Source: a virus. From it: a stretch of 64,000 nucleotides of DNA. Below the pieces are notes generated by a model, which was given only the letters and a program-made list of their open reading frames with translations, ran no database searches and was not told the DNA's origin. Location of the stretch: positions 32,001-96,000 of the IMG/VR virus record IMGVR_UViG_3300040801_003693. One strand, written 5' to 3'. Both the position numbers and the translations under genes were made by a program. Shown here piece after piece: positions 3,865 through 20,556 of this stretch (within the stretch, counting starts at the first letter, position 1; every line of letters begins with the position of its first letter).

Positions 3865-4000
3865 TATGATTTTCCTTTTGATAAGTGTGTTAAGGATTAA
3901 CCTCACCAAAAGAAAAAGGGGACATAAGTCCCCTTTTTTTATTAATTACTTACGTAAAGCTCGACGGGGGAATCTTCCCTCGTCAGACTTTACAAATGCA

Positions 4001-5281
4001 TTACATATTATCGAATGCATCTGGCTCTTCATTATTATCAGAACCTTTTACCTTAGAACGTACAGAAACAATTCTATCCATATAGGATATAATCTTTCTA
4101 GTAGAAATTTCCATTAAAGAATCTCCACTAAAATGTTTTTGCACAAACTTTCGGTCGAGAAAGTTGATTAAAGCTTTCTTCTGCGCCTTGTGATGAATTG
4201 CACTTATACCAAGACCTTGTGCAGCACGACGATGAATCATACATAAGATAGCCAACTGTTTAACCTCTTCAGCATTAAATCCCGAAAAGGTATAAGCCAT
4301 TAGATTTGGACACTTCTTCTCATTGAAGTTTCCACGCTCTAATAACTTGGCGATCGCACACAAGTTAAACGCACATCTGATTAATTCAAATACCTCCGTA
4401 GTTTTACATTTGTCAGTCCAGTTTTTACCAAATACTGCTTTCCATTCTTCCTCCGGCGAAGAATAATTCTCGGACTTATACTCTCCACGATACTCAGCGC
4501 TGTACATATTAAACAAGAAAGTTAATATCTCTGGGTTCATACCACCCAAAGGACCCCCCTCATACTGTCCTAACTCAGCAGCAATAAAAGCATTTGGGAA
4601 TGCTTTCAAGTATTTGGTACCGAATTTTGTTTTTAGTTCAGCGGATTGAACTGTTAACCCGTGAAGAAACAGTAAAGCAGACATCATTCCAAAGGTTAGC
4701 GGAACACCCACTAGTTTGTAGTTAGTGACTGTTTTAGAAAGATTGTCCTCCAAATCTTTGCAAGTAAAAGCAGCACCAGGAATACCTCCCCATTTGCTAC
4801 AATCAATGCTATCTTTTTGGACATCATAATCCTTACTAGCTTTCTCTAACAGTTGTGTTAGAGTGAGCCATTTTGTAGATACGCATTTCTTTGTATCTTT
4901 AGGACTTTGATAATAATCCCCAAATATTTCCCAATTCTCCGGAGAGCCGTGGATAATATGTGAAGCACGTATACCGTGGATACTTCCTTTGGGAGCTAAT
5001 CTTTCTGCTGTCTTTGTAATGAATATATCCTCTAACTCTTCATTTGAAATACACTGCATACTATTCTCAAGCATATCGTCAATTTTAAATTCAGAATGCC
5101 GCTTTAGTTCTGGTGCGGCTGATTCTTCTTCTAAATCAAACATCCATTCGTCAACAAAATTATCGATTGCTACTTGAGCATTTACCTCACCTAGAGGATT
5201 TTCTAAATGTGTAGCAAAGTTATTAATTAAGTCTTCAAAGGATTCGGAAGAGTTGTTGGAATTGTTATCGTGATTAGACAT
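4001..5281 (-). CDS. hypothetical protein; N-terminus similar to 5487..6785
   Basis: 426 aa, preceded by the array element. Confidence 0.75.
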   Translation of the reverse strand: MSNHDNNSNNSSESFEDLINNFATHLENPLGEVNAQVAIDNFVDEWMFDLEEESAAPELKRHSEFKIDDMLENSMQCISNEELEDIFITKTAERLAPKGSIHGIRASHIIHGSPENWEIFGDYYQSPKDTKKCVSTKWLTLTQLLEKASKDYDVQKDSIDCSKWGGIPGAAFTCKDLEDNLSKTVTNYKLVGVPLTFGMMSALLFLHGLTVQSAELKTKFGTKYLKAFPNAFIAAELGQYEGGPLGGMNPEILTFLFNMYSAEYRGEYKSENYSSPEEEWKAVFGKNWTDKCKTTEVFELIRCAFNLCAIAKLLERGNFNEKKCPNLMAYTFSGFNAEEVKQLAILCMIHRRAAQGLGISAIHHKAQKKALINFLDRKFVQKHFSGDSLMEISTRKIISYMDRIVSVRSKVKGSDNNEEPDAFDNM

Positions 5282-5344
5282 TGTAATTTTCCTTTTGTGT
5301 TAAATTTTATGTACGTTTAACCGTACTCAAAAAAAGAGGGAGAC

Positions 5345-5435
5345 TAAACAATTAACAATTATCAATTAACAATTATCAATGTAAGAATTATTTTCCTTTA
5401 TTGTTAATTGTTTACTGTTTATTGTTAATTGTTTT
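5345..5435. repeat. about 90-bp inverted heptamer-repeat (AACAATT-type, STRR/MITE-like) element in a hairpin loop
   Basis: (AACAATT)n...(AATTGTT)n between AGAGGGAGA and TCTCCCTCT. Confidence 0.8.
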
Positions 5436-5486
5436 ATCTCCCTCTTAATTGCTAGTAATAAAATTTACTAGCAATCGTTACAAAAA

Positions 5487-6785
5487 CTACATATCGTCTG
5501 GGTCGAATTGAGCTTCACCACTTGTACCTACACGATTAACGAGGGCACAACGGTTAAAGATTTTAGTAACTTTATCCACCGCACGCTCAAACAAATGCAG
5601 TTTCATTCCCTTATATTCGATAAGAGAAATACCAGTAGCAAGCGCTGCTAAACCAGAACGTATATCATCTCCCTGGTGTTGAGGAAATGATACAATACCA
5701 AAATAATTTAGCAGTCTATAAAGTTCTACTACCGCCTGGGGAGACGATGCATTACTTATCTCAAAACCTATACCTCCTGTTGAGTGATATTTAAAGTTGA
5801 TATCAAGCATTCCATCTTTGGAATACTCAATACATTCATTGAAAGTAGATTTGTTCCCATACATTTGTATAGGAGTTGCAAGGTTAGTACCCTTTTGTCT
5901 TAGTAAGTAACCAAAACTTTTACGAGTCAAACCAGACTTAAGTAACCCAACGAGCATATTACCCCACAAGTCGTGAGATTCCATGAGGAACCCAAAATAA
6001 TTTTCAGGTGTAGTTTCGTTGTCTACATTTGCGATGTAGTATCTATTACGAGGTACAAAAGCGGGATTAATTATCTCAAAAGAATTAGCATCCCAACGCA
6101 ACCAAATCAGATAACCAAAGCTTGTGATAGCAAAGATATCTGGATCTTTTGGATCTACTTTTACCGCAATGGATTTAAAGTAATCTCTCCACATTTGATA
6201 GGGAAGATTCATAATCTGAGAGCGAACCAAGTCCGCATTCGTGATTAAACTTACTTTCTTAGCAGCAATACATTCGGGAACTTTTTCAGGAAGCTCCTTA
6301 ATGATAATTACTCCTTCCTCTGCGGCTTCTTCGTAGCCATAGATTACTTGGGCATTCATACCTTCAAAGAATGCTGTCTCTGCATTTTTATCGGCATTCT
6401 CATCTAGCCAATAAAGTTTATGTTCAACCCAAGCTTCGACAATTGCTGGTGGAACTAAGTATCCTTTCTCCGCTTTGACTATTTCCATCCATCGCAGAAC
6501 AGCGTTAAGCTTAGCTATCCCTGTTTCTTCTAAAAGTTTAGGATCGCAAAACTGAGAAAAGATTTCATAGTCAATAGGAGTGTAAGACATTTCCACTCTT
6601 TCAGCCTTCATTTCTTCGGGCTGGTCTTCGTCGTATTCTACAGGTAAATCCATGAACAACCCATACCACCATGCTTCTAAAGCAGTGATGTCTATACTAC
6701 CTTCATCAAAGCGATCCATAATTGAGTCATATAGATCGACTAAAGTTTCAGCAATACCGTTAGATTGATTGTCTAAGTTAGCCAT
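5487..6785 (-). CDS. hypothetical protein
   Basis: start at ATG 6785 (GGAG RBS); 432 aa. Confidence 0.75.
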   Translation of the reverse strand: MANLDNQSNGIAETLVDLYDSIMDRFDEGSIDITALEAWWYGLFMDLPVEYDEDQPEEMKAERVEMSYTPIDYEIFSQFCDPKLLEETGIAKLNAVLRWMEIVKAEKGYLVPPAIVEAWVEHKLYWLDENADKNAETAFFEGMNAQVIYGYEEAAEEGVIIIKELPEKVPECIAAKKVSLITNADLVRSQIMNLPYQMWRDYFKSIAVKVDPKDPDIFAITSFGYLIWLRWDANSFEIINPAFVPRNRYYIANVDNETTPENYFGFLMESHDLWGNMLVGLLKSGLTRKSFGYLLRQKGTNLATPIQMYGNKSTFNECIEYSKDGMLDINFKYHSTGGIGFEISNASSPQAVVELYRLLNYFGIVSFPQHQGDDIRSGLAALATGISLIEYKGMKLHLFERAVDKVTKIFNRCALVNRVGTSGEAQFDPDDM

Positions 6786-6842
6786 GTGTTTCTCCAATAT
6801 ATTTGTTTATGTGCGGTTTAATGCACTCAGAAAAAAAGGGGG

Positions 6843-6934
6843 TAATCAATTAACAATAACCAGTAAACAATTAACAATGAAGAAAAATTTTTCTTGCATT
6901 GTTTATTGTTCATTGATAATTGTTAATTGGTTTG
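6843..6934. repeat. inverted heptamer-repeat element (same family as 5345)
   Basis: closely similar to the 9113-9200 copy; sits between GGGGG and CCCCC arms. Confidence 0.8.
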
Positions 6935-6965
6935 TCCCCCTTTATAACTAACGCGCTCACTATCT

Positions 6966-9050
6966 TTATTTCAATCTAACTGTTGCTTGTTCTGCTACAG
7001 TATGACTGGTGTTAGGATATAGTTTGCGGAATAATCTTGGTACGCTTTTGATACACTCTAAATTCTTAGGATTTTTCACCCAAGACATTAGTGCATCAAT
7101 ACTCAAGAAGTTACAAAGATCGCCGTCGTCATCTCCGTTGTTACCTCCGTACCACTCGATTGCAGGCACCGTCAGACAAGCTTTAGCAACTAACTGTTTA
7201 TCCCTAACGATGTCAGGAAACTCGCAGTATTCTGTTGCAGGACCAACTATTTTAACTACTGCAAATAAATAGCTGGGATTTGGGTTACGCCATACTAATA
7301 GACGCTTACCTTGAAGCTTGCCAGCCCAAGGATCGTTGGAAGCAAGATAAACCTCACCTTCAGTTACCCAACTGGCTTCAATACCACGAACCTTCATCGT
7401 GTATACCCGCTTACCACTCTTAGTAGCGTTCTTTAGCGGAGTGTTTCTCCCTTCCCCAAACTCGTCGTCTCCTACTACGCTCTGCTTGCAACAGCTAACG
7501 TAAATGTTCAACAACTGGTCTCGGGTAGAAGTCCAGTCTTTTGGACGGTCATCAGGATGTACACCATAATGTCTTATGATATCCACAATACACTTAGCAA
7601 CTAAATTTACACCTCCTTCGGGAGTTAATCCCATGATTTTTGCTAACTCAGTAGAAACCCAAACATCATAACCACCCCCATGAGTAATTACTAAATTGTT
7701 TGGTGCAGCTTTTAAAATACTGCTAATAGAAGACGCATCCTCAAATTCAACGTAGTTTTTATCAGTCCAATAAGTAGCTCCCTTGGGAGTTTTCTCATAG
7801 GCAACGTCGAGAAGAATTGACATCTCCCTTTCGTTCTGATAGCCTGTAGCTTTTAAAGCCAAGCCTAAATCGTTATTGATATTATGGATGGACTGCAAAC
7901 CTTCCCAATAAATCTTACCGGAACCGTTAGAAGAACGGTTTTCCTCAGTCAAAGACAGTTCAGTTGTAGTATGATGCATACCAAAGATTGCGTCTCCGGT
8001 AATAAACATATAGTTTCCACAAAACGAAACGTTCTGTTTCCCCTCATACTGCTTTTTAAGAACAGTAATAAATTCGTCACGGAAGTAACGAACTCCTACA
8101 ACTTTACGAGTTGAAGCGTCAATGAACTGATTAATTTCTCCGATTTGCTTATTGGTAGGAAATGAAGTAATACCAGATGCTCCTTCTACATCTACTTCAC
8201 GAATCTTCATTACCGAACTTTCTCCAGTCATGCAGTACTTAGTGGAAGCCCAAAGCTGTTTAGAAATTTGAGAACCTTTGATTCCCTCCGAACCAACAGC
8301 AACTTTTACGTGGGGTATACGTACAGCAGTTTCGTTCAGAATATTTTGAACGTTTGTAAAATGTTCCCCGATAGATTCGTAGAGTACGAACCCACCATAA
8401 TCCATTAAATCCTCCAAGTTTTTACAAATTGGATTGGGAACAAAACACATTTTGGCAGCTTCACCCGCAACTTTTTGGTTATTGCAGTTACGTGTAATAT
8501 GCTTACCAATGACGCGCAATCTTAACTGACCGCTGGAACTACCCTTCTCAAAATCTAAATCAGTATATTTTATTTGTGGCAACGCTGTAATTAGGAATTC
8601 AAAATCTTCTCCTTTACTATATTGAGCGGCGTTAACAAATGTTCCCGTACCCAATAAGTCTTCTTGAAATATTTTGTCCCCTGGCTTTAATACGTCACCA
8701 ACACGTACCAAATACTTGATACGTGAGCGAACTGCTTTAAGTCTTTCATCCCACTCCATCTTCGGATCTAAATTCCAAACAGAAAGTTGAAACTTAAGAT
8801 TTGCCTCGATTTCATGAAATTCAGTACCAGCAAAGTACACTGACCCAGATACTCCAGGATTTAAAATCGCTTGCAGGTTATAAGAAATAACTGTGCTTCT
8901 ATGTGCCCCCTTCTGACACACAGTCTCTTCTTCAGACTCAAATACTATTGGTGCTTCAACCCCAATGGTACTTTGTGTTGCGGATAATCTGTTGAGACCA
9001 TCTGCTAATTGAGCAGCGGATAAAGAAGCGATTTGTTTGATGTAGCTCAT
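6966..9050 (-). CDS. putative compact single-chain two-barrel RNA polymerase (YonO-like architecture)
   Basis: beta-like VRVGDVLKPGDKI and QKVAGEAAKM; beta'-like LLVWRNP followed by GNNGDDDGD (DxDGD metal-binding motif). Confidence 0.65.
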   Translation of the reverse strand: MSYIKQIASLSAAQLADGLNRLSATQSTIGVEAPIVFESEEETVCQKGAHRSTVISYNLQAILNPGVSGSVYFAGTEFHEIEANLKFQLSVWNLDPKMEWDERLKAVRSRIKYLVRVGDVLKPGDKIFQEDLLGTGTFVNAAQYSKGEDFEFLITALPQIKYTDLDFEKGSSSGQLRLRVIGKHITRNCNNQKVAGEAAKMCFVPNPICKNLEDLMDYGGFVLYESIGEHFTNVQNILNETAVRIPHVKVAVGSEGIKGSQISKQLWASTKYCMTGESSVMKIREVDVEGASGITSFPTNKQIGEINQFIDASTRKVVGVRYFRDEFITVLKKQYEGKQNVSFCGNYMFITGDAIFGMHHTTTELSLTEENRSSNGSGKIYWEGLQSIHNINNDLGLALKATGYQNEREMSILLDVAYEKTPKGATYWTDKNYVEFEDASSISSILKAAPNNLVITHGGGYDVWVSTELAKIMGLTPEGGVNLVAKCIVDIIRHYGVHPDDRPKDWTSTRDQLLNIYVSCCKQSVVGDDEFGEGRNTPLKNATKSGKRVYTMKVRGIEASWVTEGEVYLASNDPWAGKLQGKRLLVWRNPNPSYLFAVVKIVGPATEYCEFPDIVRDKQLVAKACLTVPAIEWYGGNNGDDDGDLCNFLSIDALMSWVKNPKNLECIKSVPRLFRKLYPNTSHTVAEQATVRLK

Positions 9051-9112
9051 GTAATTTTCCTTTTTATGAATTCCGGATTTGTTCCGGTATGACTCAATAA
9101 AAAGGGGGATTA

Positions 9113-9200
9113 GTCAATTAACAATGACCAGTAAACAATTAACAATGAAGAATAATAGTTCTTACATTGTTTATTGTTAATTGATAATTGTTAATTGTTT
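9113..9200. repeat. inverted heptamer-repeat element (same family)
   Basis: CAATTAACAATGACCAGTAAACAATTAACAATGAAGAA...ATTGTTTATTGTTAATTGATAATTGTTAATTG. Confidence 0.8.
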
Positions 9201-9219
9201 ATCTTCCCCCTTCTAAAAA

Positions 9220-10125
9220 TTACATATTATCTAAATCACTTTCTTCCTCCGTTAATTCATTAAATAAAGACTGTATCTCTGCATCAATATATTCTATTTT
9301 TATATTTGATTCAAAGTTATTTAAATCAAGTTCTCTTGAAGATTCAATTACAGTTTCTTCTTCCTCTATTTCTAATCTCCTTTTTAGATGGTCTGTAACT
9401 TTTACTTTATTGACATAATCATTTGATTCTTCTACAACTCTTCCTTTCATTCTGTCCATAACAGAGCTAGGTCTATCTACCTTATGGATATAATCATCCC
9501 CCGGAGAGACAAGCTTTATTGCATATATCTCTGGTTTAGATATAAATACAGTAAATGCTTGGGTTGTTTTACCGTTTGCTAGTGGAATAGTTTTTAGTTC
9601 TCCTACACCTTTTGAAGAATCCGCAGATTTTACAACCATCATTTGAATCTGTAACTTCTTACGAGCAGTTACATACTCGTAAAATTTACGCCACAGATTT
9701 CCTTCTCCTTGAACGGTAGTTTTTTCTATGCCTAACATTTCTCTAATTAGAGGGGCAGAAAGATTAAACTTCCAGTTAATTGGAATCCCATGTAGCTCAG
9801 AATTATGGGATTCTAAGTTTCTAGAGATATCATCAAATTCTGTTAGTTCAATTTTTCCTTCTGAGTTGGGTTGTATTCCCCATCCTCTCCAAGAAGTTAG
9901 GAATGGAGTTTGAATTCCCGCTTTTCCTGATTTAGTTATAAACCCATTGTTTACAGTAACGGTTGTCCCACCAGTACTAGACGACTTTTGCTCCGGTCCT
10001 GATAATGATAAGGTCAGTACAAATCCGTTCTCTTTCACCCAGGAGCGATCGCACTCTTGTGTAAGGTCAACTAAGTTGTTAAAAATTTCTTGTAAAGACC
10101 ATTTACCGTTCTTTGAAATAGCCAT
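9220..10125 (-). CDS. hypothetical protein, paralog of 2695..3864
   Basis: start reassigned to ATG 10125 because the array hairpin and GAGGG RBS lie at 10131-10173. Confidence 0.7.
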   Translation of the reverse strand: MAISKNGKWSLQEIFNNLVDLTQECDRSWVKENGFVLTLSLSGPEQKSSSTGGTTVTVNNGFITKSGKAGIQTPFLTSWRGWGIQPNSEGKIELTEFDDISRNLESHNSELHGIPINWKFNLSAPLIREMLGIEKTTVQGEGNLWRKFYEYVTARKKLQIQMMVVKSADSSKGVGELKTIPLANGKTTQAFTVFISKPEIYAIKLVSPGDDYIHKVDRPSSVMDRMKGRVVEESNDYVNKVKVTDHLKRRLEIEEEETVIESSRELDLNNFESNIKIEYIDAEIQSLFNELTEEESDLDNM

Positions 10126-10465
10126 AGTATATCCCTCTTTTTTATTTGCTCTAGACTTGTCAAATAAAAAGGGAACGGATTTTATGTTTGTCTTCATAAT
10201 AAAAACTATCTGGGTAGCAGCGTTATCTGTCGCTGTATTAATAAGTAATTTATTTGTTAGTCTTTTATACTTGTTTTTTGTAACAAAGAACAACTAGCAA
10301 TATTACTTAAATATTTTTATTATTTACTCAGATAATTTTATTCCTGTGTATGTATACTTAAGTATGTATACTTTTTATGTATTTTAAACTTCAATATTTA
10401 AGTAGGGGTATAGAATACTTATGGAACGAATTATTTTATACCTCACTCACATTATATTAAATTTT

Positions 10466-10915
10466 CTATATAAAAGAATAAGCCCAAAGGAGTATATTTA
10501 GTTCGTTTGCACGTAATAGTTTTGGGTCTATGTAAGCTTGCGAACAAGATCTCATCTCTACTCTTTCTGCGTGTTCTCCTCCTAAGTAAACACATATATT
10601 TTTACCTTCAGCTTTTGCAAAATTTATTTTACCGCAAGCATCTTCTCCAAAAGGAGATTTGCTTTTATACGAAGATGGTAAATAACAACTTACTACCCAA
10701 TTTGCTTCATCAGCAGCAAATCTAAATTGCTCAAAGTCTTCATGATGAATAAAGACCATTACTCCTATCTCCCCCGTCTCTAAATTTTTTACTCCTAGTT
10801 CACAATATTCTTTCCCCTTGGCAGGATAAAAATATTTACCTACCACTACTTGAAACTTTTTAATTTCTGAAGTTACATTGATGCGATTGTTTTTGATCTC
10901 GTTAAATAATTTCAT
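10466..10915 (-). CDS. hypothetical protein
   Basis: 149 aa, preceded by the array element. Confidence 0.7.
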   Translation of the reverse strand: MKLFNEIKNNRINVTSEIKKFQVVVGKYFYPAKGKEYCELGVKNLETGEIGVMVFIHHEDFEQFRFAADEANWVVSCYLPSSYKSKSPFGEDACGKINFAKAEGKNICVYLGGEHAERVEMRSCSQAYIDPKLLRANELNILLWAYSFI

Positions 10916-10978
10916 TTCTTTTCTTTGTATTATTTGTACAAAGAAAAAGGGGAGACATTGCCCCCTAATTAATATAAA

Positions 10979-11464
10979 TTAGATATCTAAATATTTTTCA
11001 ATTTGATAATCTTTTTTTAAACAATATTCATTTTTCATCACATCTTGAATTAGTTCTGACATTAAATAAATATTATTCTGATTGCTGAATGCTTGAGCTT
11101 CTTCTAACCACAAACTTTTCTTATAATTACTCTCAATAAAAGGAGTTATTTCTTGCGAAGAAAAAGTTATCTTTTTGTTGTTTCTTAAGAGAAAGTATTG
11201 GAATGCATGAATTAATTCATGCAGAAAAGTTGAGTATGAAGGTCTACGATATAAAAATATCGTCCCAATATAGTCCTCAAACTTTTCCCAGTTTTGAATA
11301 AACTTACCGTTTAAGTTATTTTTAATATAACTAGTATTAATTTTTATTCTAAACTGATAATTTGTTAAATAATAAATATCAGCTAGCAAGTTTATCTCAT
11401 CCTTATTTAAACATCTACAATCCAAAGAAATATGTACAAAATCTAAAGAATGTTCGTTAGCCAT
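10979..11464 (-). CDS. HExxH zincin-like metallopeptidase (family C)
   Basis: TFLHELIHAFQ...EEAQA. Confidence 0.65.
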   Translation of the reverse strand: MANEHSLDFVHISLDCRCLNKDEINLLADIYYLTNYQFRIKINTSYIKNNLNGKFIQNWEKFEDYIGTIFLYRRPSYSTFLHELIHAFQYFLLRNNKKITFSSQEITPFIESNYKKSLWLEEAQAFSNQNNIYLMSELIQDVMKNEYCLKKDYQIEKYLDI

Positions 11465-12824: not shown

Positions 12825-13048
12825 TTAAATTTCTCCTTAGTTGGAAGTGAGTCAACTAAGAAGAAAAAAGGGAGTATGAATAAATCAACTATCTATACGC
12901 ACAATCATTATTATTTTTCATCTTCAAACTCATTATTCCATCTGAACAAAATCTTATTTTATAATTCTTCATTATTTTTCCTTTTTGAGTTGAGTACCTT
13001 CTAAAGCTAAAAGGGAGTATTCTTTTAGCAGAAACGTTGGGCTTGACT

Positions 13049-13549
13049 TCAACAGAAACAGACCTTATTGCTTATCCTTTTTCTAAACAAATTGCTAATA
13101 TTTTTAAAGAAGTTGTCAGCTACTTCTACTACAGGTAATTCAATGTTGCCTATCAATACCATTCTCTCCCAGGAGGAAAGAACTAATCCAAGAAAGCTTT
13201 TGAATAAAGCTATAACATAATCTATATTATGTTCGTTGCTATATGCTTGAGCTTCTATTTCCCAATTACGTTTGTTGTAGTAGTTTTTAATCTCCTTGGT
13301 TATTTTTCCTTTGATGTTTAATTCTATACCCAGATTTTTATCTAAGTAATCTTGAAGTGCGTGTATTGCTTCATGAACAAATGTTGTCCAGGAAGTTTTC
13401 TTTTTGAGGATTATACTTTTAATTGAATGATCGTAACAGCCTTGGATTCTTTTATCTTTCATTACTATATCTTTCCACTCTACTGATACACCTATTTTGC
13501 GTACTAGTTTTAGCAAGGTATTTAGTTTTGTTTTAGGTAAATTTTTCAT
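13049..13549 (-). CDS. HExxH zincin-like metallopeptidase (family C)
   Basis: GCYD...TFVHEAIHALQ...EIEAQA; start reassigned to ATG 13549. Confidence 0.7.
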   Translation of the reverse strand: MKNLPKTKLNTLLKLVRKIGVSVEWKDIVMKDKRIQGCYDHSIKSIILKKKTSWTTFVHEAIHALQDYLDKNLGIELNIKGKITKEIKNYYNKRNWEIEAQAYSNEHNIDYVIALFKSFLGLVLSSWERMVLIGNIELPVVEVADNFFKNISNLFRKRISNKVCFC

Positions 13550-13739
13550 TGTCTTTTCCTTTGTATTATTTGTACAAAGAAAAAGGGAGAAGTTTACTGG
13601 AGAGAATATCTTCCTAGTAAACTTCGGAGGAAACATATCTTAATAATTTAGAAAGAAATACCTTTGGGTTGAACGATTTACTTATAGAGAGTATTTATGT
13701 TAAGTTGGTAGGAAATAAAATATTATCTAAATAAGGATC

Positions 13740-13904
13740 ATGATTGGTTTTCTTATCTACTTAGCATTGATATTTTTATTGACTACAATTATTACTCCAA
13801 TTTGTAGTAGTACAATAGACGTTTTTTGGAAAGATATACTCATTGGAATTATTGTAGGAATAGTCTCTATTGTTGGATATTTGAAAGGAAAGGATGTTTT
13901 CTAA
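13740..13904 (+). CDS. 54-aa two-TM membrane protein (moron-like; not in ORF track)
   Basis: AAGGA RBS; MIGFLIYLALIFLLTTIITPICSSTIDVFWKDILIGIIVGIVSIVGYLKGKDVF; hairpin terminator at about 13914-13934. Confidence 0.55.
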   Translation: MIGFLIYLALIFLLTTIITPICSSTIDVFWKDILIGIIVGIVSIVGYLKGKDVF

Positions 13905-13944
13905 ATTATATATAAAAGGGGATTATCCCCTTTTATATATAATT

Positions 13945-14367
13945 TTACATTAAACAAGCTTGAACTGAACCTAGAATAGCCGTTAGTTTTTTAGATTCTT
14001 GAGTTGTACCTTGACGACACTTCTCAAATAAATCTTGAAATGAAACTGTGTTTAGTAATTCAAAAGAATAACCAGTAACAGAAACTAACATAGACTCTTC
14101 TACGTTCTTTTTCAACAAGTCAATCCAAGCCACATTTTCAGAATGCAATTCGTAGTAGTCTACAGGTTCTAATGAAGAGACTAAATAATCTACTGTAGCA
14201 GACCAAGTTGCGGACATATCACTAATGCTGAAGATTAAATTATCTCCATCCCAACGGAATGAAGATACTTCAATCGGCAATGACATATCTACTTTTATAG
14301 GTAGTCCTTCTACCATTACAGTAGTAGACAAACTATTTGCAGGATTAACAAATACTAAATCAAACAT
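13945..14367 (-). CDS. hypothetical protein (family D)
   Basis: MF.LVF.N...SLS.T..VEG.P N-terminus shared with the 15428 and 20403 genes. Confidence 0.7.
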   Translation of the reverse strand: MFDLVFVNPANSLSTTVMVEGLPIKVDMSLPIEVSSFRWDGDNLIFSISDMSATWSATVDYLVSSLEPVDYYELHSENVAWIDLLKKNVEESMLVSVTGYSFELLNTVSFQDLFEKCRQGTTQESKKLTAILGSVQACLM

Positions 14368-14443
14368 GGATTTCTCCTTTATGAATTAAAGTTCAATAAA
14401 GAAGAAAAAGGGGGAGCGATAATACTCCCCAGCTTTCATAACC

Positions 14444-14830
14444 CTAAGCTTTATATGTCATTACTTCTATATACATATCCCTGTTTCTCTTTGAAGGGTT
14501 TGAGTTGTATGTAAAATCGTTTTGATGTATTTTGCTAGAGACAAATCCTAACTTCTCATACACACTCTTTCTATAATTCTCTCCTCCATCCAGACTATGA
14601 GCCTGACAAAAGATTGAATCATATTGATTTTTTTTAATAAACTCATTCCACTTACTATAAAGAAACTTACTTATGTAATATCTTTCTTTCTTAGAAAGAT
14701 AAGGATTAAAGTCAAAACTATTGTTTACTTTAAATTGAACGGAATAAACGCCTTCGCTAACTAAAGTAAATGTAATCTCAACTATGTTTCCTAAAATATC
14801 TTTCTCAAAAGTAATTTGTTTTAAATGCAT
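14444..14830 (-). CDS. GNAT-like small protein (family B)
   Basis: FKVNNS...IFCQAHSLDGGENYRKSVYEKLGF. Confidence 0.6.
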   Translation of the reverse strand: MHLKQITFEKDILGNIVEITFTLVSEGVYSVQFKVNNSFDFNPYLSKKERYYISKFLYSKWNEFIKKNQYDSIFCQAHSLDGGENYRKSVYEKLGFVSSKIHQNDFTYNSNPSKRNRDMYIEVMTYKA

Positions 14831-14999
14831 TGCAACCCTTTTATTATTGACGAATAAACATCAATAAAAAGGGCGACATTTGACACGGGAGGCAATTTCA
14901 GGAGGAAGATTCTTCCTGAAAGGTCTGATATCCTTTTTCATTTTCTTGAATTAAACATCAAGAAAAAAGGGATTGCTCCCTTAATTCATAAATAATTAT

Positions 15000-15428
15000 T
15001 TATAGTCCACCATACACACACTCAATAGTCTCTTCTTGACAAGGAGTTCTAGGTGCGAAGGCAATAGTAAGTATTGGAAAAGTCAGTACTAATACTATTA
15101 TGAGAACCTGTAATATAAAACCTTTACTCCATATAGACTCTGGAGCATAAGTTAATATTTCAGGTTCGCTTGCCCAACCCTCAGAGGGAACTGGTTGATG
15201 ATCGACCAACTCCGGCTCTAAAAGTTGTATGAGGTACTGTAAGGTGTGAACCCATGCCTCACGACTTTCTTTATTTGGGTGTTCTATTTGGACAATCAAG
15301 TCGTTATTTTCCCAATGATATTCAACAATATCAATAGGTAAAGAGACTGGAACGTCAACAGGTACACCTTCAACAAAGATTGTGTTGGATAAGGACTTTT
15401 GGCAGTTGTTAAATACTAGTGTAAACAT
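15000..15428 (-). CDS. family D protein with C-terminal TM helix
   Basis: shared N-terminus; FILQVLIIVLVLTFPILTIAF. Confidence 0.7.
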   Translation of the reverse strand: MFTLVFNNCQKSLSNTIFVEGVPVDVPVSLPIDIVEYHWENNDLIVQIEHPNKESREAWVHTLQYLIQLLEPELVDHQPVPSEGWASEPEILTYAPESIWSKGFILQVLIIVLVLTFPILTIAFAPRTPCQEETIECVYGGL

Positions 15429-15501
15429 GAGATTTTTCCCTTGTAAAGTGCAATAAAAAAGGGAAAATAATAAAGGGTGATATTAAATCACCCTCTAAAA
15501 A

Positions 15502-15864
15502 TTAATTTAGAAGAAGCTGTACCTCTTTCCAAAACTCATCATCAAACTCAGGAAGTTTGTTTTTATTGTCTTTCCATACTTGAATGAAATGATTGTATTC
15601 TTCAACAATTAAAGCTTCTGGAAATATAATATTGTAATCAAACAACATTTGAATTCCACAATAAACTTTGTTCAATTCTTCATAGTCTTTATAACCCTGT
15701 TCTAAAAGAACAACCATTATTTCTTCTTTATAGGAAGGACCTAAATTGAAGAACACATGAACCATATCATGCTTTATTGCCTGCAATACTTTTGGAACTG
15801 ATAAGTTGTGCTTTTCCAACCACACTTTATAATCAGCAACAAAATACATAGCGTCAGTAGTCAT
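15502..15864 (-). CDS. Coq4-like HDxxH-x11-E protein (family A)
   Basis: HDMVH-VFFNLGPSYKE-E. Confidence 0.65.
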   Translation of the reverse strand: MTTDAMYFVADYKVWLEKHNLSVPKVLQAIKHDMVHVFFNLGPSYKEEIMVVLLEQGYKDYEELNKVYCGIQMLFDYNIIFPEALIVEEYNHFIQVWKDNKNKLPEFDDEFWKEVQLLLN

Positions 15865-15931
15865 TATAATTTTCCTTTGTTAGTAGAAATCAACAAAAGA
15901 AAAAAGGGAGACATTGCTCCCCCTCATTTAT

Positions 15932-16351
15932 TTATCTAAGACTGTTTAGAAACGCTTCCCTTCTTTCTACATAAAAGTTAAACTCATTGACAAATCTCCA
16001 AGGTATTTCTACCACTTTGTCATATAAAAACAGTACGTGCTTTTTGATAAACATATACTGCTCTTGAGTTAAGACTTCCCCTTTGCTTTCTATTTTATAG
16101 AAGTCATTTACATAATCATATGAAATAACATTTTCCATGCCATAATTTTGGGCGTACTCTATAAGAGATACTACTGTCTCTCCAAAAGGAGAAACACCCA
16201 TGTCGCAAAGAGTATGCATCATATCATGATACAAAAATCTATTATCCCCAGCAGGGATTTGAAGGTTATGCTTTTCAATCCAGTCGTAGTAGCACTGCAC
16301 TACTTCCAATACATCATTGTCTTTAACTAGATTAAATTTTGCGTTAGTCAT
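15932..16351 (-). CDS. Coq4-like HDxxH-x11-E protein (family A)
   Basis: HDMMH-TLCDMGVSPFG-E. Confidence 0.65.
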   Translation of the reverse strand: MTNAKFNLVKDNDVLEVVQCYYDWIEKHNLQIPAGDNRFLYHDMMHTLCDMGVSPFGETVVSLIEYAQNYGMENVISYDYVNDFYKIESKGEVLTQEQYMFIKKHVLFLYDKVVEIPWRFVNEFNFYVERREAFLNSLR

Positions 16352-16409
16352 TGCTTTTCTTGAAGATAAACATCAAGAAAAAAGGGCGACAATTAAGCCG
16401 CCTTTAAAA

Positions 16410-16829
16410 TTAAACTTTATTTAACTCTTTATGAACCTTCACCCAAAAATGTTTAGGACGATGGTGTAGATGAATCCGAATGATTGGTAAAGCATATCTA
16501 TATCTTTTGACAATAGATATGTAAACACTATTCTTCATCTCCGAGGAGGGAAAAGAAAGAATGGAGTTTAATTGTTTGTAGACCGCTTCTACAAACTCTT
16601 TACGATGAACGCTTACGCATCCATACTCAATCTCTAACTCTATAAGCCTTATAGCTACCTCTTCCTCTGGAGAAGTAGAGAACTGACTAAGAACATGATA
16701 GAAATCATGCTCTCTCAATTCTTTATTATTTGCTTTAGGCAAATCAATTTTGTTTTTACTTAACCAAACTTTATAGTCGGATACATAAGAATCAATTTGC
16801 AAGTTAGCTTGAACATCTTTAATATTCAT
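16410..16829 (-). CDS. Coq4-like HDxxH-x11-E protein (family A)
   Basis: HDFYH-VLSQFSTSPEE-E. Confidence 0.65.
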   Translation of the reverse strand: MNIKDVQANLQIDSYVSDYKVWLSKNKIDLPKANNKELREHDFYHVLSQFSTSPEEEVAIRLIELEIEYGCVSVHRKEFVEAVYKQLNSILSFPSSEMKNSVYISIVKRYRYALPIIRIHLHHRPKHFWVKVHKELNKV

Positions 16830-16904
16830 TATTGTTTTCCTTGAAGTTAAACATCAAGAAAAAAGGGTGATTATATGCCACCCTTTTAAAACACTCTCAC
16901 GTTT

Positions 16905-17441
16905 TTAATAAATACCGAAATCCTCCATTATTTTGTTTACTAAATTATGATACTTAACCAAATCGCTACCCATGATTTTATTTGTTAAATAGACTACGTG
17001 ACAATATTTATACTCTTCCCACAATATTTTGTAGGCTTTAGTAAGATCCTTTGTCTTTTTTAAGACTTCTGAAATCTGGTAGTCTAACTCCCATTCTTCA
17101 TATATGTCTAATGTGTCTGTATTGATATCGTACTCCGAACCAAGATGAATCATTTCCCCGCTAGAGGAATAGAAACTAAACCCGGCTTTTTTAAACATTC
17201 TAGTCCTTTCAACTTGTCTTTCATCTCCGGAGAAAGGTATACACTTTAAATAAGCAAAACTATTATTCATCTTAAAATCTTTAAAAGAATTTAATATAAA
17301 CCTAGTAATTGCTATTTTAGATTTTACCTCCCCCATTGAATATGACCCGTTTACTTGAACGCAGACTGTATAAGAGTTATCAAAGTTAGGTTTAAAACTT
17401 AACTTTACGTTATCGCCACAAACATTATTTAAATAAAGCAT
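16905..17441 (-). CDS. family B (GNAT-like) protein with C-terminal extension
   Basis: VQVNGS...ITRFIL...LKCIPF...RTRMFKKAGF. Confidence 0.6.
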   Translation of the reverse strand: MLYLNNVCGDNVKLSFKPNFDNSYTVCVQVNGSYSMGEVKSKIAITRFILNSFKDFKMNNSFAYLKCIPFSGDERQVERTRMFKKAGFSFYSSSGEMIHLGSEYDINTDTLDIYEEWELDYQISEVLKKTKDLTKAYKILWEEYKYCHVVYLTNKIMGSDLVKYHNLVNKIMEDFGIY

Positions 17442-17498
17442 TGTTTTTTCTTGAAATAAACATCAAGAAAAAAGGGCATAACGCCCTTATTATTAAAA

Positions 17499-17861
17499 TT
17501 ATTTTTTAGCTTTTAACTTCATCTTTATCTCCTCGGAGATGAATGCAATCTGTGTAGGCTTTTTATACTTGTATCTAAAACCCATTTTGTAATAAGCTTT
17601 TTTACGATACTCACCACCACCATCATCCTTGTGAGCCTCACAAGTAATGACATCAAAGTCAACTTCATCAATAAACAATTTCCAATGAACTAATAACCAT
17701 TTGGTAATAGCAAGCTTAGTTCTTTTTGGAATGTTTGGATTGATATCCAAACTATCATTTACTGTGAAGAATACTTCCCACACTTTCTTCTCCATCCGAA
17801 GAAAAGAGAAGTAAATGTGGTTGCCATCTATAATGGTTTCGTAATCTTTTAAATCGCACAT
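17499..17861 (-). CDS. family B (GNAT-like) protein
   Basis: FTVNDS...ITKWLL...CEAHKDDGGGEYRKKAYYKMGF; start at ATG 17861. Confidence 0.6.
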   Translation of the reverse strand: MCDLKDYETIIDGNHIYFSFLRMEKKVWEVFFTVNDSLDINPNIPKRTKLAITKWLLVHWKLFIDEVDFDVITCEAHKDDGGGEYRKKAYYKMGFRYKYKKPTQIAFISEEIKMKLKAKK

Positions 17862-17932
17862 AATCTTTTCCTTGAAAATAACTTCAAGAAAAAGAAATAA
17901 GGGTGACTTAATAATCACCTCTTATAGAAGAA

Positions 17933-18244
17933 TTATTTTCTATAACATCTAGCTATAGAATTCTCTTCTTCAAAACCTAACTTTTTATAAACCTTTTCTC
18001 TGTACTCTCCTTCTCCATCTTCTTGATAGGCATAACATCTGATAATATCAAACGTCTGATTACTTAAGAAATGTTTCCAACTAGTTAATAACCATCTTGT
18101 AATTTTAATTTTATTTAGTTTGGATATTGAAGGGTCTATATCGTAGTAACCATTTATTTTAAAATCTACAGAGTACTCTTTAGGTTGCCAGGATTCAAAA
18201 GAAAGAGATACATTTATTCCGTTGATATTAGTAGAGTAATTCAT
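17933..18244 (-). CDS. family B (GNAT-like) protein
   Basis: FKING...ITRWLL...EDGEGEYREKVYKKLGF; start at ATG 18244. Confidence 0.6.
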   Translation of the reverse strand: MNYSTNINGINVSLSFESWQPKEYSVDFKINGYYDIDPSISKLNKIKITRWLLTSWKHFLSNQTFDIIRCYAYQEDGEGEYREKVYKKLGFEEENSIARCYRK

Positions 18245-18301
18245 TGTTTTTCTTGATATAAACATCAAGAAATAAGGGCGAAATTGTCGCCCTTATTATT
18301 A

Positions 18302-18673
18302 TTAAAATACTTCTGTATAGATATTCTCTTCTTGAGAAATGAAACTCTCAGAGAAATATCCTAGATAACCTGTTCTTAAAACAGGAATAAACCCTAATTT
18401 TTTATATGCCTTTGTTCTATATTCTTTTTCTCCATCCTCTTTGTAAGGTATACAATATACCCACTCGAAGGTGTTAGAAGTAATAAAACTTTTCCAAACA
18501 TCTAACAGCCATTTGGTTATTAGATATTTATCTTTTTTAGACAAATTAGGATCTAAGTCGTGACTTCCATTAACTTTGAAATCTGCCATGTAACTATGGT
18601 TTTCGATTCCCGTTTTGAAAGTGAACACAACTTCGTTATCGTTAACAATTGTATTAAATTGAATAGTAGCCAT
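18302..18673 (-). CDS. family B (GNAT-like) protein
   Basis: FKVNGS...ITKWLL...EDGEKEYRTKAYKKLGF; start at ATG 18673. Confidence 0.6.
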   Translation of the reverse strand: MATIQFNTIVNDNEVVFTFKTGIENHSYMADFKVNGSHDLDPNLSKKDKYLITKWLLDVWKSFITSNTFEWVYCIPYKEDGEKEYRTKAYKKLGFIPVLRTGYLGYFSESFISQEENIYTEVF

Positions 18674-18792
18674 AAGAATTTCTTCTTTGTTAATAAACAT
18701 CAACAAAGAAGAAAAAAATAAGGGAGACACTTTGACACAGGGCACAGCCCGTGTCAAAGTGTCGGTCGTGACATTACTGCCACCCTAAAGTA

Positions 18793-19161
18793 TTAAGCTG
18801 CTAATAGCTGATTGACTTTATCGAAGAATGTATAATTAAGCTCTACAAAATCTTTTGATAAGATATTATAAAACTTAACTAAACATTGATACTGTTCTCT
18901 ACTTAACTGTTCAGTTCCCTTAGAGATTTCTGAATAGTTAATAGCAGCAGTATCGTAGTCGAAAACAAATCCTTGTTCCACCATTGCGACTATACCTTCC
19001 TCCGGATAAGACACACCCAAGTCCGTTAGGACATGAACGTAATCGTGCATCCGAAAGAATTCACAGTCTGGTAAATCCAGATTATTCTTTTCCAACCACT
19101 TCAAATAAGCATCAACATAACCCTGTGGGTCGTTAGCTAAATGAAATTTAGTATTTAACAT
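18793..19161 (-). CDS. Coq4-like HDxxH-x11-E protein (family A)
   Basis: HDYVH-VLTDLGVSYPE-E. Confidence 0.65.
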   Translation of the reverse strand: MLNTKFHLANDPQGYVDAYLKWLEKNNLDLPDCEFFRMHDYVHVLTDLGVSYPEEGIVAMVEQGFVFDYDTAAINYSEISKGTEQLSREQYQCLVKFYNILSKDFVELNYTFFDKVNQLLAA

Positions 19162-19225
19162 TGTTCTTGAATATAAACATCAAGAAAAAAGGGCAGCATT
19201 TCTACTACCCTTGTATACACAGTTC

Positions 19226-19873
19226 TTAATAATTGCATTCGCTAATATCTGGGGCTGTGCATGAATCCCAATAAACAGTATCTTCTACTGTAATATTGGG
19301 AGAAAAAGAACTAGTTTGAAGAAGGATCATAGCAACCAATCCAAAAAACCTAAACCGATTCAGATTAAATGGATATGCTCGAACAGAATTCCACGAAGTT
19401 ACCCTCGTGAAATTTGGTTGCTTGATTTGATAAACATTGTATCGACAATTAGGTTGCCTGTTACGTTGTTCTACCAAGCATTGCATTATCTGCAATACTA
19501 AATATGGATAGCTTTCTAAAGCTACAGCAGCATACTCTAATGCAGAGTATCTGTTGTCCCATATTTTCTTCAATTTTGAGATAGAAGGTTTTGCTATTCC
19601 CATTCTTTCGAGCAGGATATCAGCTTCTGCCACCGTCGCCAAACACCCGTATGCTTGAATCAAGTGAACACACTCATGCGTAAAAATCGTAATCCTTTCT
19701 TGAGGAGCGAGATTTTCGTAATCATAGATTACAATTTTTTTATAAAATGCATTATAAATTCCTGACGTTCCCTCACGCTTCCCTTCATATAGCAATTTAT
19801 GACCAAAATCATCCACGATAACTTTTGCAAAAGTTTCTTCTAATCTTTTTAATTCTTTAATTGATACGCTCAT
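19226..19873 (-). CDS. HExxH zincin-like (IrrE/ImmA/SprT-type) metallopeptidase with hydrophobic C-terminal segment
   Basis: GIYN...KIVI...FTHECVHLIQ...LEYAA. Confidence 0.65.
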   Translation of the reverse strand: MSVSIKELKRLEETFAKVIVDDFGHKLLYEGKREGTSGIYNAFYKKIVIYDYENLAPQERITIFTHECVHLIQAYGCLATVAEADILLERMGIAKPSISKLKKIWDNRYSALEYAAVALESYPYLVLQIMQCLVEQRNRQPNCRYNVYQIKQPNFTRVTSWNSVRAYPFNLNRFRFFGLVAMILLQTSSFSPNITVEDTVYWDSCTAPDISECNY

Positions 19874-19943
19874 AGGATTTCTCCTTTGTTAATAAACAGC
19901 AACAAAGGAGAAAAAAAGGGCAGCATTACTGCCACCCTTAAAG

Positions 19944-20403
19944 TTATTCTCTTTCTAACTTAAACAAAAGCATTTGATATTCTACTCTAAACGAACTCTC
20001 CAAGTACTCTACCTGGCTAAGCTTATTTATCTTGGTTAGCCTATAGTTCATCATAGACATCAGTTGAGTCTTATCGTGAATAGATATCTCAGGACTGCTC
20101 ATGACACTATTAATGTCATAAATCTCAGCCCTCCAGGCTAATACTTGGTTCTCATTATTTGTTTTATCTGGATAGTTGAATCCTTGCGGATTCAAATTAT
20201 GCCGGAGAAAAGCAAACGAATGATGCCAAGCATTCTTAGCCTCTTCACTATTGTGTTCAACCTGGAAAACCAGGTTATCACCGGGAGCATTCATAGCTGA
20301 TGATATCGCTTGGTAGCGACATCTCTACTACTACTGGGTATCCCTCTACCATCACTGTGGTGGATAAGGACTTAGTGGGATTAATAAATACTAATGTAAA
20401 CAT
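19944..20403 (-). pseudogene. family D gene split by a 1-nt frameshift
   Basis: MFTLVFINP...DIISYECS continues as GDNLVFQVEH in another frame at TGCTCCCGGTGAT (about 20277-20289); paralogs read through (WDGDNLIF, WENNDLIVQIEH). Confidence 0.7.
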
Positions 20404-20556
20404 GAGGTTTCCCTTGTTCTTAAGTGCAATAAAAAAGGGACACTCAAGTTCAATTTGTATAAGTTTCTGTGCAGAAATCACGTCTGGGTGGGGGGTACCC
20501 ACACACAAATAAATTAGTTAAAATATCCGCAGCAACTTTTTTAAAATAGAAAGCTC

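Follow-up and report, generated by a model that had tools for sequence, protein, structure and literature searches.

A Hairpin Element Pairing a Terminator-Like T-Tract with the Next Ribosome-Binding Site Precedes Every Gene of a Cassette Array in a Relative of Microcystis Phage Ma-LMM01

We analysed a 64,000-nucleotide stretch of viral DNA (hereafter the window), bases 32001–96000 of the IMG/VR record IMGVR_UViG_3300040801_003693, which is 135,938 bp long and has a CheckV completeness estimate of 78%, and focused on a composite hairpin element that stands ahead of each of 24 consecutive minus-strand genes. The phage is an uncultured, distant relative of Microcystis phage Ma-LMM01: its major capsid protein shows 49% identity to those of Ma-LMM01 and MaMV relatives and 46% to that of Microcoleus phage My-WqHQDG. 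Read 5' to 3' on the coding strand, the element consists of a GC-stem hairpin (T1), the bases CCC, a run of five to seven Ts, a second hairpin (H2), a spacer of 0–8 nt and the ATG. The T-tract of the terminator-like half also opens the 5' arm of H2, and the 3' arm of H2 is the Shine–Dalgarno (SD) region of the following gene. Pairing between the two arms and selection on the structure are seen in the data, and we consider it moderately probable that the element is a cassette junction resembling the promoter early stem-loops (PeSLs) of T4-type phages and acting mainly at the RNA level, as a terminator joined to a cis-acting anti-SD lock, with translatable RNA arising from internal 5' ends.

Results

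The Element Stands before Each of the 24 Genes

The array makes up the first 18 kb of a 52-kb run of minus-strand genes that begins at a divergent intergenic region near window position 20,500; it extends from 20,440 down to ~2,630, with ATGs from 20403 to 3864 and one element ahead of each. Folding of the stretch between CCC and ATG, a distance of 30–59 nt, gave H2 in all 24 cases, with 7–21 pairs and a folding free energy (dG) of -5.8 to -17.1. The 5' arm begins in or at the T-tract; the 3' arm is purine rich, holds the AAGGAG or AGGAGG at a normal SD spacing and ends 0–8 nt before the ATG. A stable T1 (dG <= -5) that abuts the CCC/T boundary, the signature of an intrinsic terminator, is present in 18 of the 24 elements; T1 is absent or weak ahead of the genes at 20403, 14830, 12824 and 10125, borderline at 10915 (-4.9) and displaced by 10 nt upstream at 15428. 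The two hairpins abut with no single-stranded gap between them. At least ten different H2 stems occur, including CTTGA/TCAAG, CTTTGTA/TACAAAG, CTCCTTTGTTG/CAACAAAGGAG, CTTCTTAGTTG/CAACTAAGGAG and CCCTT/AAGGG, and one H2 block of 35–38 nt stands before genes of two unrelated families (A and B, below) and before an orphan, with T1 and the coding DNA differing between the copies.

An earlier note on this DNA had listed 24 such positions, and by fold and strand reading all of them are real elements. Its description of the T-tract as the 5' arm, and of the ribosome-binding site (RBS) as the 3' arm, of a second hairpin holds throughout, and its statement that pairing is kept while the sequence changes agrees with the tests that follow. 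The terminator-like hairpin that it placed before nearly every gene is stable and abutting in 18 elements, the other six being weak, absent, borderline or offset.

Pairing Exceeds Chance and Is Biased to the Sense Strand

Terminator-like sites between window positions 2000 and 21000 number 48, against 9.8 ± 3.5 in shuffles, and the leaders (-45 to -1) of 23 array genes fold with a mean dG of -11.0 (z = -4.7), compared with -3.3 (z = -0.25) for 133 other called genes (Mann–Whitney p = 5e-12). The arms of H2 match each other individually: with its own arms the hairpin has -11.2 kcal, with arms taken from other elements -6.5, and none of 10,000 permutations was as good as the true assignment. A covariance model built from ten elements and run with filters off at E <= 1 gave 36 matches in the window, and a search of the whole record at E <= 1 gave 31; in both cases, every match lies inside the array, which is the outcome of a genome scan proposed in the earlier note. 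In the model-fitted alignment, paired cells amount to 86.7% against 77.4% in shuffles and double-change cells to 47 against 19.3 (reached in 0 of 500 shuffles), and all slid registers score below the true one; as this alignment is biased towards structure and includes antisense images of palindromes, we use it as supporting evidence only. Alignment of 20 elements with MAFFT alone produced a weak RNAalifold consensus with stems out of register, and it was replaced by the folds of single elements, the arm swap and the covariance model. A rule-based element detector gave 64 matches in the phage's own genome, many of them weak and intragenic (21 with the T1 flag, 11 of these in the array); it was applied to the relatives only, where its matches are clean, and for the own genome we rely on the covariance model.

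The folding is strand biased, with -11.2 kcal for the sense strand and -9.4 for the antisense strand (Wilcoxon p = 0.0013) and with 26 against 13 G·U pairs. The bias recurs in 25 unique elements of Ma-LMM01-type relatives, where the values are -10.6 and -7.2 (p = 5e-5) and the G·U pairs 47 and 14; for T1 it is not significant (p = 0.10). Among orthologous elements of the relatives, the fraction of variable columns is 0.09 in the T-run, 0.25 in the 5' arm, 0.38 in the 3' arm, 0.40 in the H2 loop and 0.57–0.58 in the T1 loop and the upstream DNA, and the lower variability of the pyrimidine arm than of the purine arm is expected if U faces A or G. These patterns point to H2 being a structure in RNA that carries both arms and, given the favoured folding of the sense strand, to its acting as RNA and not as a hairpin in template-strand DNA.

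Signals of host-type promoters are not enriched. Sigma70-like promoter sites are at chance level between positions 2000 and 21000 (75 against 74.7 expected), and TAnnnT is depleted, being found in 8 of 24 elements here and 7 of 29 in the relatives compared with about 20 in composition-matched shuffles. A sigma70 promoter with its -10 in the H2 loop, or with TTGnnn as its -35, was considered and rejected, as the spacing puts the -10 on or beyond the ATG. As far as tested, these counts and the short CCC-to-ATG distance bear out the earlier claim that there is no room for a sigma70 promoter between the terminator-like hairpin and the ATG. Upstream of 69 non-array genes, a search for enriched 7-mers returned a weak TTAGTTA/TAACTAA signal only.

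Relatives Keep the Architecture and Shuffle the Cassettes

Ma-LMM01 itself has elements at gp067, gp066, an unannotated 50-residue open reading frame (ORF) and gp064, the first four genes of its corresponding minus-strand cluster, which adjoins divergent lysis genes. They read GGGGCC...GGCCCC, TTTTT and CCTTCTAG-loop-CTAGGAGG, ending 4–6 nt before the ATG. The C-terminal part of the giant protein described below retrieved nine further loci from IMG/VR; seven of these (GC 47%) carry 5–8 elements each, downstream of the giant gene and in the same orientation, and the rule-based detector found none in the other two or in My-WqHQDG. The architecture is a lineage trait, kept at the same genomic position over ~50% protein divergence with stem sequences that differ.

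Clustering of the proteins encoded behind the elements gives the orders C-J-B-E-F in Ma-LMM01 and C-D-A-B-E-G-F, C-D-H-A-A-B-E-G, I-D-H-A-A-B and H-A-C-D-A-A-B-A-I in other loci (the letters denote protein clusters); single cassette genes are present or absent, occur in one to four copies or have moved. In blastn comparisons of the IMG/VR loci, two alignments of L012 with L013 overlap at L012 2109–2157, the place of an element at 2110–2153. Between L013 and L016, homology is lost at 1166 (element 1129–1172) and is back at 1536 (element 1537–1581), and within this interval a 112-residue gene is replaced by a 656-residue one; the alignment of L012 with Ma-LMM01 breaks at 1764 (element 1724–1768). 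The breakpoints fall within patches of common sequence of 40–50 nt. Since one gene family can follow different T1 hairpins, the crossovers can be placed in the core of T-run and 5' arm, which is also the least variable part of the relatives' elements. In Ma-LMM01-type relatives, then, cassettes have been inserted, replaced and duplicated with breakpoints in the elements, and the comparison of gene orders suggested in the earlier note came out as orders that vary, with breaks at the elements. For the present phage, the H2 block shared by unrelated families is the same signature as the exchanges in the relatives, and by analogy its cassettes may have been exchanged in the same way.

Two side observations concern these genomes. 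ORFs of 43–50 residues stand behind perfect elements (in Ma-LMM01 at L007 21948, minus strand, and in the IMG/VR loci L012–L020); they are unannotated in Ma-LMM01 and have one to four copies among the relatives. In My-WqHQDG (L011, 150–163 kb), small minus-strand genes follow a GC hairpin that lacks a T-run and, 8–25 nt before the ATG, a (T)ACACACA motif, a different and possibly promoter-like junction.

The Phage Encodes Putative Two-Barrel RNA Polymerases

The gene of cassette 21 (P0001; 6966–9050, minus strand) encodes a 694-residue protein whose motifs and predicted fold match a single-chain two-barrel RNA polymerase (RNAP). It has the motif GDxDGD, here GDDDGD, together with RxP, and G639, D640, D642, G643, D644, R588 and P590 are invariant in ten homologues. 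An AlphaFold model from ten homologous sequences reached a mean predicted local distance difference test (pLDDT) score of 80, compared with 41 for an input of three sequences, and a Foldseek search with it gave 83 PDB matches at E <= 0.001, those among the matches listed being second-largest (Rpb2/beta-type) or beta' chains of RNAPs; the template modelling (TM) score is ~0.2, and only the core aligns. The nearest ESM Atlas clusters belong to PF05183 (score 0.95). Searches of the protein against Pfam, PHROGs and PDB sequences, the last also with profiles of its family, were negative, as was Pfam for nine homologues, and PF05183 gave no match in the genome. About 20 relatives turned up among 1.84 billion representatives, two of them close (62% and 44% identity); no locus with a homologue was found in IMG/VR or JGI metagenomes, and tblastn gave no match in phage records. 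The 656-residue cassette gene of L016 was tried as a homologue and rejected, not being homologous. The DxDGD loop, the RxP and the beta/beta' core fold are those of the YonO/QDE-1-like single-chain enzymes, and on this modelled fold we accept that the phage encodes a small two-barrel RNAP.

Adjoining the array, two large ORFs of 1467 and 2186 residues (23200–34299, minus strand) match PHROG 31006, which is the 3562-residue gp080 of Ma-LMM01; here, the giant protein is split in two with a gap of ~135 nt. Members of the family lie at L007 29701–40389 (gp080) and at L008 1–7869. The motif RSPP...GGDFDGD is found here and in gp080, and GDFDGD in the giant ORF of My-WqHQDG. The giant ORFs had no sequence match in the PDB or Pfam, and a 1000-residue part gave a weak lead only in the ESM Atlas (0.82–0.84). 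Judged by its motifs, the giant protein is probably a two-barrel RNAP as well, and it is probably virion borne. A literature search turned up no paper linking Ma-LMM01 with two-barrel RNAPs or with these hairpins. The premise of the earlier note that the phage has RNAPs of its own is thus supported, by the beta/beta'-like fold of the smaller protein and the motif of the larger one, and a non-sigma70 promoter inside each element accordingly stays conceivable.

The Single Units of the Array

All elements lie on the minus strand, and the limits of their hairpins are given in the direction of reading; type I stems are CTTGA/TCAAG and type III stems CTTTGTA/TACAAAG. At the array head, element 1 (20401–20467) has no stable T1; CCCTTTTTT is at 20439, H2 spans 20439–20411 (CCCTT/AAGGG), and the ATG at 20403 begins a frameshifted family C gene. 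Element 2 (19871–19939) has T1 at 19939–19916 (dG -14.5) and H2 at 19913–19878 (CTCCTTTGTTG/CAACAAAGGAG, dG -17.1) ahead of the ATG at 19873 of a 215-residue HExxH-like protein. Element 3 (19159–19212; T1 19212–19189, type I H2 19186–19164) precedes a family B gene at 19161. Four family A genes follow: element 4 (18671–18763; T1 18763–18726, dG -27; H2 18714–18679, dG -17.1) with its ATG at 18673, element 5 (18242–18296; T1 18296–18272, type I H2 18272–18249) at 18244, element 6 (17859–17919; T1 17919–17902; H2 17895–17864, dG -14.7) at 17861 and element 7 (17439–17488; T1 17488–17472, AAGGGCGTTATGCCCTT; H2 17473–17444, TTTTTTCTTGA/TCAAGAAAAAA) at 17441. They are succeeded by three family B genes, behind element 8 (16827–16887; T1 16887–16861, type I H2 16863–16835; ATG 16829), element 9 (16349–16402; T1 16402–16385, type I H2 16382–16354; ATG 16351) and element 10 (15862–15925; T1 15925–15904, H2 15903–15870; ATG 15864).

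In element 11 (15426–15497), T1 at 15497–15471 is the one that lies 10 nt upstream of CCC; H2 is at 15467–15434 (TTTTCCCTT/AAGGGAAAA) and the ATG at 15428 belongs to family C. Element 12 (14939–14982; T1 14982–14967, type I H2 14965–14942) is followed at ATG 14941 by an ORF of 26 codons only, and element 13 (14828–14886), with no stable T1 and an H2 at 14873–14836 (dG -15, including CCC/GGG), by a family A gene at 14830. Elements 14 (14365–14430; T1 14430–14411, H2 14407–14371; ATG 14367, family C) and 15 (13547–13625; T1 13625–13589, type III H2 13585–13553; ATG 13549, family D with HExxH) have both hairpins; element 16 (12822–12898; ATG 12824, family B) has a weak T1 and an H2 at 12866–12830 (CTTCTTAGTTG/CAACTAAGGAG, dG -16.1). 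Three type III copies come next, element 17 (12394–12446; T1 12446–12431, H2 12432–12399; ATG 12396), element 18 (11462–11514; T1 11514–11500, H2 11497–11471; ATG 11464, family D) and element 19 (10913–10964; T1 10964–10949, dG -4.9; H2 10948–10918; ATG 10915), and then element 20 (10123–10206), with no stable T1, H2 at 10173–10133 and ATG at 10125.

In elements 21 to 23, ahead of the putative polymerase gene and of two genes for ~430 residues, T1 gives way to near-perfect palindromes of ~45 pairs, made of CAATTAACAAT repeats between G5 and C5. In element 21 (9048–9214), the palindrome has 115 nt (9214–9100, dG -43.6), H2 is branched (9105–9059) and the ATG is at 9050; element 22 (6783–6943) has 109 nt (6943–6835, dG -45.8), H2 at 6835–6789 and ATG 6785; element 23 (5279–5446) has 113 nt (5446–5334, dG -47.1), H2 at 5337–5290 and ATG 5281. 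These palindromes could be RNase III substrates, operators or cruciforms. The last element (24; 3862–3938; T1 3938–3913, dG -16.2; H2 3917–3870, dG -16.2) precedes the ATG at 3864, and the array ends at 2630–2649, minus strand, with a strong hairpin and T-run that has neither H2 nor a gene start; the genes past this hairpin are closely packed and element free. Rfam gave no family at the elements at the gathering threshold and sub-threshold chance matches only at E <= 1, for example miRNA-precursor models on a long palindrome.

Upstream of the first element, at 20484–20540 on the minus strand, lies a module of ~55 nt, TTGCTG-CGG-ATATTTT...GGGTACCCCCCACCCAG, that is common to Ma-LMM01-type phages, where it stands two to three times in tandem within the divergent intergenic region (L007 ~23400–23620, L012 ~17990–18210, L017 ~17960–18065). 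CCCCCACCCAG, which forms part of it, would be expected 0.07 times in the window and is found once. The module, whose direction is not settled, may act as a head promoter or as a control site of another kind. In Ma-LMM01-type phages, a full T1 stands between it and the first gene.

The array genes form interleaved paralog families, as the earlier note had observed, with five members in A, five in B, three in C and two to three in D. Pfam and PHROG searches of the array proteins found essentially nothing, most proteins having no match. Family D (13049–13549, 10979–11464 and 19226–19873, all minus strand) has HExxH and weak matches, below threshold, to zincin-like Pfam families, Tox-MPTase4 among them, and family B proteins have an HDxxH-type motif in common. 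The first cassette gene (family C, 20403–19944, minus strand) is interrupted: residues 1–38 are read in one frame, and the homology then goes on in the +1 frame. A pseudogene, a sequencing error and programmed frameshifting are possible causes. The sole plus-strand gene candidate in the array, a strongly hydrophobic ORF of 54 residues at 13740–13904, adjoins a bidirectional terminator at 13920–13945. The window also holds, at 60788–60824 on the minus strand, one CRISPR-DR5 repeat that scores above the gathering threshold of its family (RF01318, 45.3 bits). Megablast of the array against INPHARED phages gave no match, and an exact 20-mer of the type I element had 0 matches in IMG/VR.

Discussion

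We suspect that the element combines several functions in one short sequence. T1 with CCC and the following five to seven Us would, by its anatomy, stop or attenuate transcription of the upstream gene and cap its 3' end. The U-tract and a few pyrimidines after it would then serve as an anti-SD-like 5' arm that pairs with the RBS of the next gene and locks any RNA reading through; the pairing and the selection on it are observed, and from the buried SD we infer an effect on translation. Translatable mRNA would begin within the element at new 5' ends downstream of the U-tract, which is the weakest step of the proposal; initiation by a non-sigma70 two-barrel RNAP of the phage seems the most likely route and endonucleolytic cleavage an alternative. 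Finally, the conserved core of CCC, T-run and 5' arm is, in the Ma-LMM01-type relatives and probably also here, the patch of homology through which one-gene cassettes are exchanged, duplicated and deleted by homologous recombination. We favour internal 5' ends because 18 canonical terminators in series leave little read-through, because no gene would otherwise escape silencing by a hairpin of -8 to -17 kcal that covers a strong SD, because a full T1 separates the head module from the first gene in Ma-LMM01-type phages, and because analogous arrays of other phages have one start signal per cassette.

A bolder proposal, which we think rather unlikely, is that the elements are stop-and-restart signals for the phage's own two-barrel RNAPs. 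The giant protein after its injection, or else the 694-residue polymerase of cassette 21, would stop at T1 and the U-tract and re-initiate a few bases further on, at the core of CCC, T-run and pyrimidines; its own transcripts, lacking the 5' arm, would be translated, and read-through RNA would be self-locked by H2. If true, this would be a host-independent grammar of one-gene-at-a-time expression for Ma-LMM01-type cyanophages and would contradict the published view that Ma-LMM01 uses host sigma70 only.

Several observations weigh against internal 5' ends and against initiation by a polymerase of the phage's own. No promoter motif is definable inside the elements, and orthologous copies show no particular conservation of the H2 loop. 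H2 is kept in all 24 elements including that of the first cassette, which has no upstream gene; if the cassettes' own transcripts lack the 5' arm, H2 forms in read-through RNA only, and selection on it would be indirect. Part of the G·U excess could be a by-product of the U-tract lying opposite the guanines of the SD. Ma-LMM01 has the elements yet no detectable homologue of the 694-residue polymerase, and My-WqHQDG carries the giant protein with GDFDGD yet no such elements. Four sequencing runs containing the sequence are listed, all of DNA from one microbial-mat sample and none of RNA. In the portion available of the RNA-seq account of Ma-LMM01, the early class is gp054–gp063 and not the element-bearing gp064–gp067, and transcription is ascribed wholly to host sigma70 (PMC5780444); given that class, the array should not be called early.

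Transcription could alternatively start at the head module and run through the array as one long operon, carried on by host RNAP under antitermination or by a phage RNAP insensitive to terminators. The elements would then create no new 5' ends, T1 would be an attenuator or 3'-end stabiliser, and H2, in every mRNA, would either damp translation constitutively or hold up 5'-to-3' decay. We regard this as a real possibility, if clearly a lesser one: a conserved module does stand at the array heads of this phage and of Ma-LMM01-type phages, the elements lack a promoter motif, and an operon would account for H2 being selected in RNA that holds both arms and kept at a first cassette with no gene upstream. 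However, 18 canonical terminators with GC stems and five to seven Us in series would let almost nothing through for a bacterial-type RNAP, the hairpins over strong SDs would nearly silence every gene, and the direction of the head module is not settled; the full T1 between this module and the first gene of Ma-LMM01-type phages also fits autonomous cassettes better than a long operon. If the translatable 5' ends arose by cleavage, the cleavage variant of the third step above, the elements would be processing sites like the early RNase III sites of T7, cut in or near H2 by RNase III or RNase E, with T1 left as a 3' protector and the next RBS freed. The strand-biased RNA structure and the abutment of T1 and H2 are in keeping with this, the palindromes of 109–115 nt before the genes at 9050, 6785 and 5281 would be good RNase III substrates as RNA, and RNase III does unmask an RBS in the lambda N leader. 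Most H2 stems, however, have 7–16 A–U-rich pairs and stay below the approximately two helical turns that RNase III prefers, and a conserved internal-loop motif is absent from the elements, so that we find processing improbable as a general explanation. Of the earlier note's suggestion of RNA processing or translation control, the translational, RNA-level part is thus the best supported, by the buried SD and the more stable sense strand, and RNase III-type processing seems possible mainly at the three long palindromes.

Two further suggestions of the earlier note fare less well. Promoters of the N4 kind, extruded from DNA and read by a virion RNAP that starts just 3' of the hairpin, might be expected where the neighbour of the array is a giant protein, probably carried in the virion, that has the catalytic motif of an RNAP, and where a hairpin precedes every array gene; we judge them very improbable here, as the loops have 4–13 nt or are branched, the stems of 7–21 pairs vary freely in sequence, the more stable fold is that of the sense strand, RNA begun 3' of H2, with leaders of 0–8 nt, could make no use of the well-placed SD, and the giant protein is by motif of the two-barrel type and not T7-like as in N4. 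Sites resembling attC, at which a site-specific recombinase would excise and insert one-gene cassettes as in integrons, would explain why imperfect palindromes bound one-gene cassettes and why cassette content varies among relatives. This seems to us hardly credible: the record, at its estimated 78% completeness, gave 0 matches to Phage_integrase (PF00589) in a search that matched 14 of 14 control genomes, the hairpins are ordinary terminators with GC stem and T-run, and the breakpoints lie inside 40–50-nt common patches, as homologous exchange predicts. T4-type PeSLs, according to the available part of their description, behave alike without an integrase (PMC2839356). What stands of this suggestion is the shuffling of one-gene cassettes, in the relatives and by homologous exchange.

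If our interpretation of a terminator with a cis anti-SD lock is right, an element of ~60 bases joins a transcriptional stop, a lock on the next gene and a homology patch for cassette exchange, and the principle of mobile regulatory cassettes known from T4-type phages extends to the Ma-LMM01 lineage of bloom-controlling cyanophages, whose cassettes have no recognisable host promoter and lie beside putative phage-encoded two-barrel RNAPs. Ma-LMM01 is cultured and has four copies of the element at gp064–gp067, so that mechanism, promoter use and polymerase dependence are testable there. The combination of transcriptional stop and translational lock may also provide a compact insulator design for synthetic operons in cyanobacteria.

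Among known systems, short inverted repeats recurring by the genes of an early or cassette region are also formed by N4 promoters, attC sites and the RNase III sites of T7. N4 promoters have a stem of 5–7 bp, a loop of 3 nt and fixed bases on the template strand and are read by a T7-like single-subunit virion RNAP; attC is an imperfect palindrome of R''-L''/L'-R' with extrahelical bases and a conserved core site, the partner of the tyrosine recombinase IntI; and a T7-type RNase III site has about two turns of double-stranded RNA, often with an internal loop. The elements differ from these in hairpin geometry, strand, enzyme family and the absence of an integrase, and a likeness to RNase III substrates is confined to the three long palindromes. 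Closer in one respect are the T4 genes e, soc, 49 and I-TevI, where transcripts begun upstream have their RBS folded into a hairpin and those begun within that hairpin are translated. The initiation region is likewise folded in upstream-started RNA; those, however, are single genes with a defined late promoter, whereas here the unit has 24 copies, no defined promoter and a 5' arm that is the U-tract of a terminator.

In the promoter-coupled terminators of bacteria, as far as described in the available part of the source, a -10 hexamer follows the T-tract and transcription starts ~10 bp past the termination site (10.64898/2026.08.19.745784). There too, a few tens of bases serve both as terminator and as start region of the tandem gene that follows, and the T-tract is dual purpose, but in our elements its second role is RNA pairing with the SD; with TAnnnT depleted both here and in the relatives, they lie outside what Fletcher et al. 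call by that name. In the pre-early region of Thermus phage P23-45, 14 promoters are read by a virion two-barrel RNAP, and 7 conserved terminators occur (10.1101/2022.12.01.518664); the likeness, on the available part of that account, is in the pair of a virion and a small non-virion two-barrel RNAP and in a first-expressed region punctuated by repeated promoters and terminators with conserved motifs. P23-45 is an unrelated phage, its motifs were defined by 5'- and 3'-end sequencing and chromatin immunoprecipitation, and the same part of the account describes no RBS-locking hairpin; here, the assignment of the giant protein as a polymerase comes from motifs only.

The nearest parallel is with the PeSLs of T4-type phages, which, in the parts of the literature available, recur between ORFans as units of terminator and promoter that contain a GGGG...CCCC stem-loop and end in an SD and ATG (Arbiol et al. 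2010, PMC2839356). Both functions have been demonstrated for them, and indels and mini-circles arise by crossing over at these sites, with no integrase taking part (PMC2839356; Comeau et al. 2014, PMC4122927). Our elements share the composite design repeated between small tandem ORFan genes, here 24 units before 24 genes, a GC stem-loop that has, in 18 of 24, the sequence signature of a terminator or attenuator, the SD and ATG at the 3' end, the lack of an involved integrase and, in the Ma-LMM01-type relatives, the indels and replacements with crossovers inside the units. They differ in that PeSLs hold a strong sigma70-type -35/-10 promoter, none being detectable here, in the pairing of the U-tract with the next SD, which the available part of the PeSL account does not describe (PMC2839356), and in their hosts, Ma-LMM01-type cyanophages with putative two-barrel RNAP genes and not T4-type phages. 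In our reading, the element is the cyanophage counterpart of the T4-type PeSL cassette, in which the sigma70 promoter has been replaced by a cis-acting lock on the RBS, and this lock is the addition.

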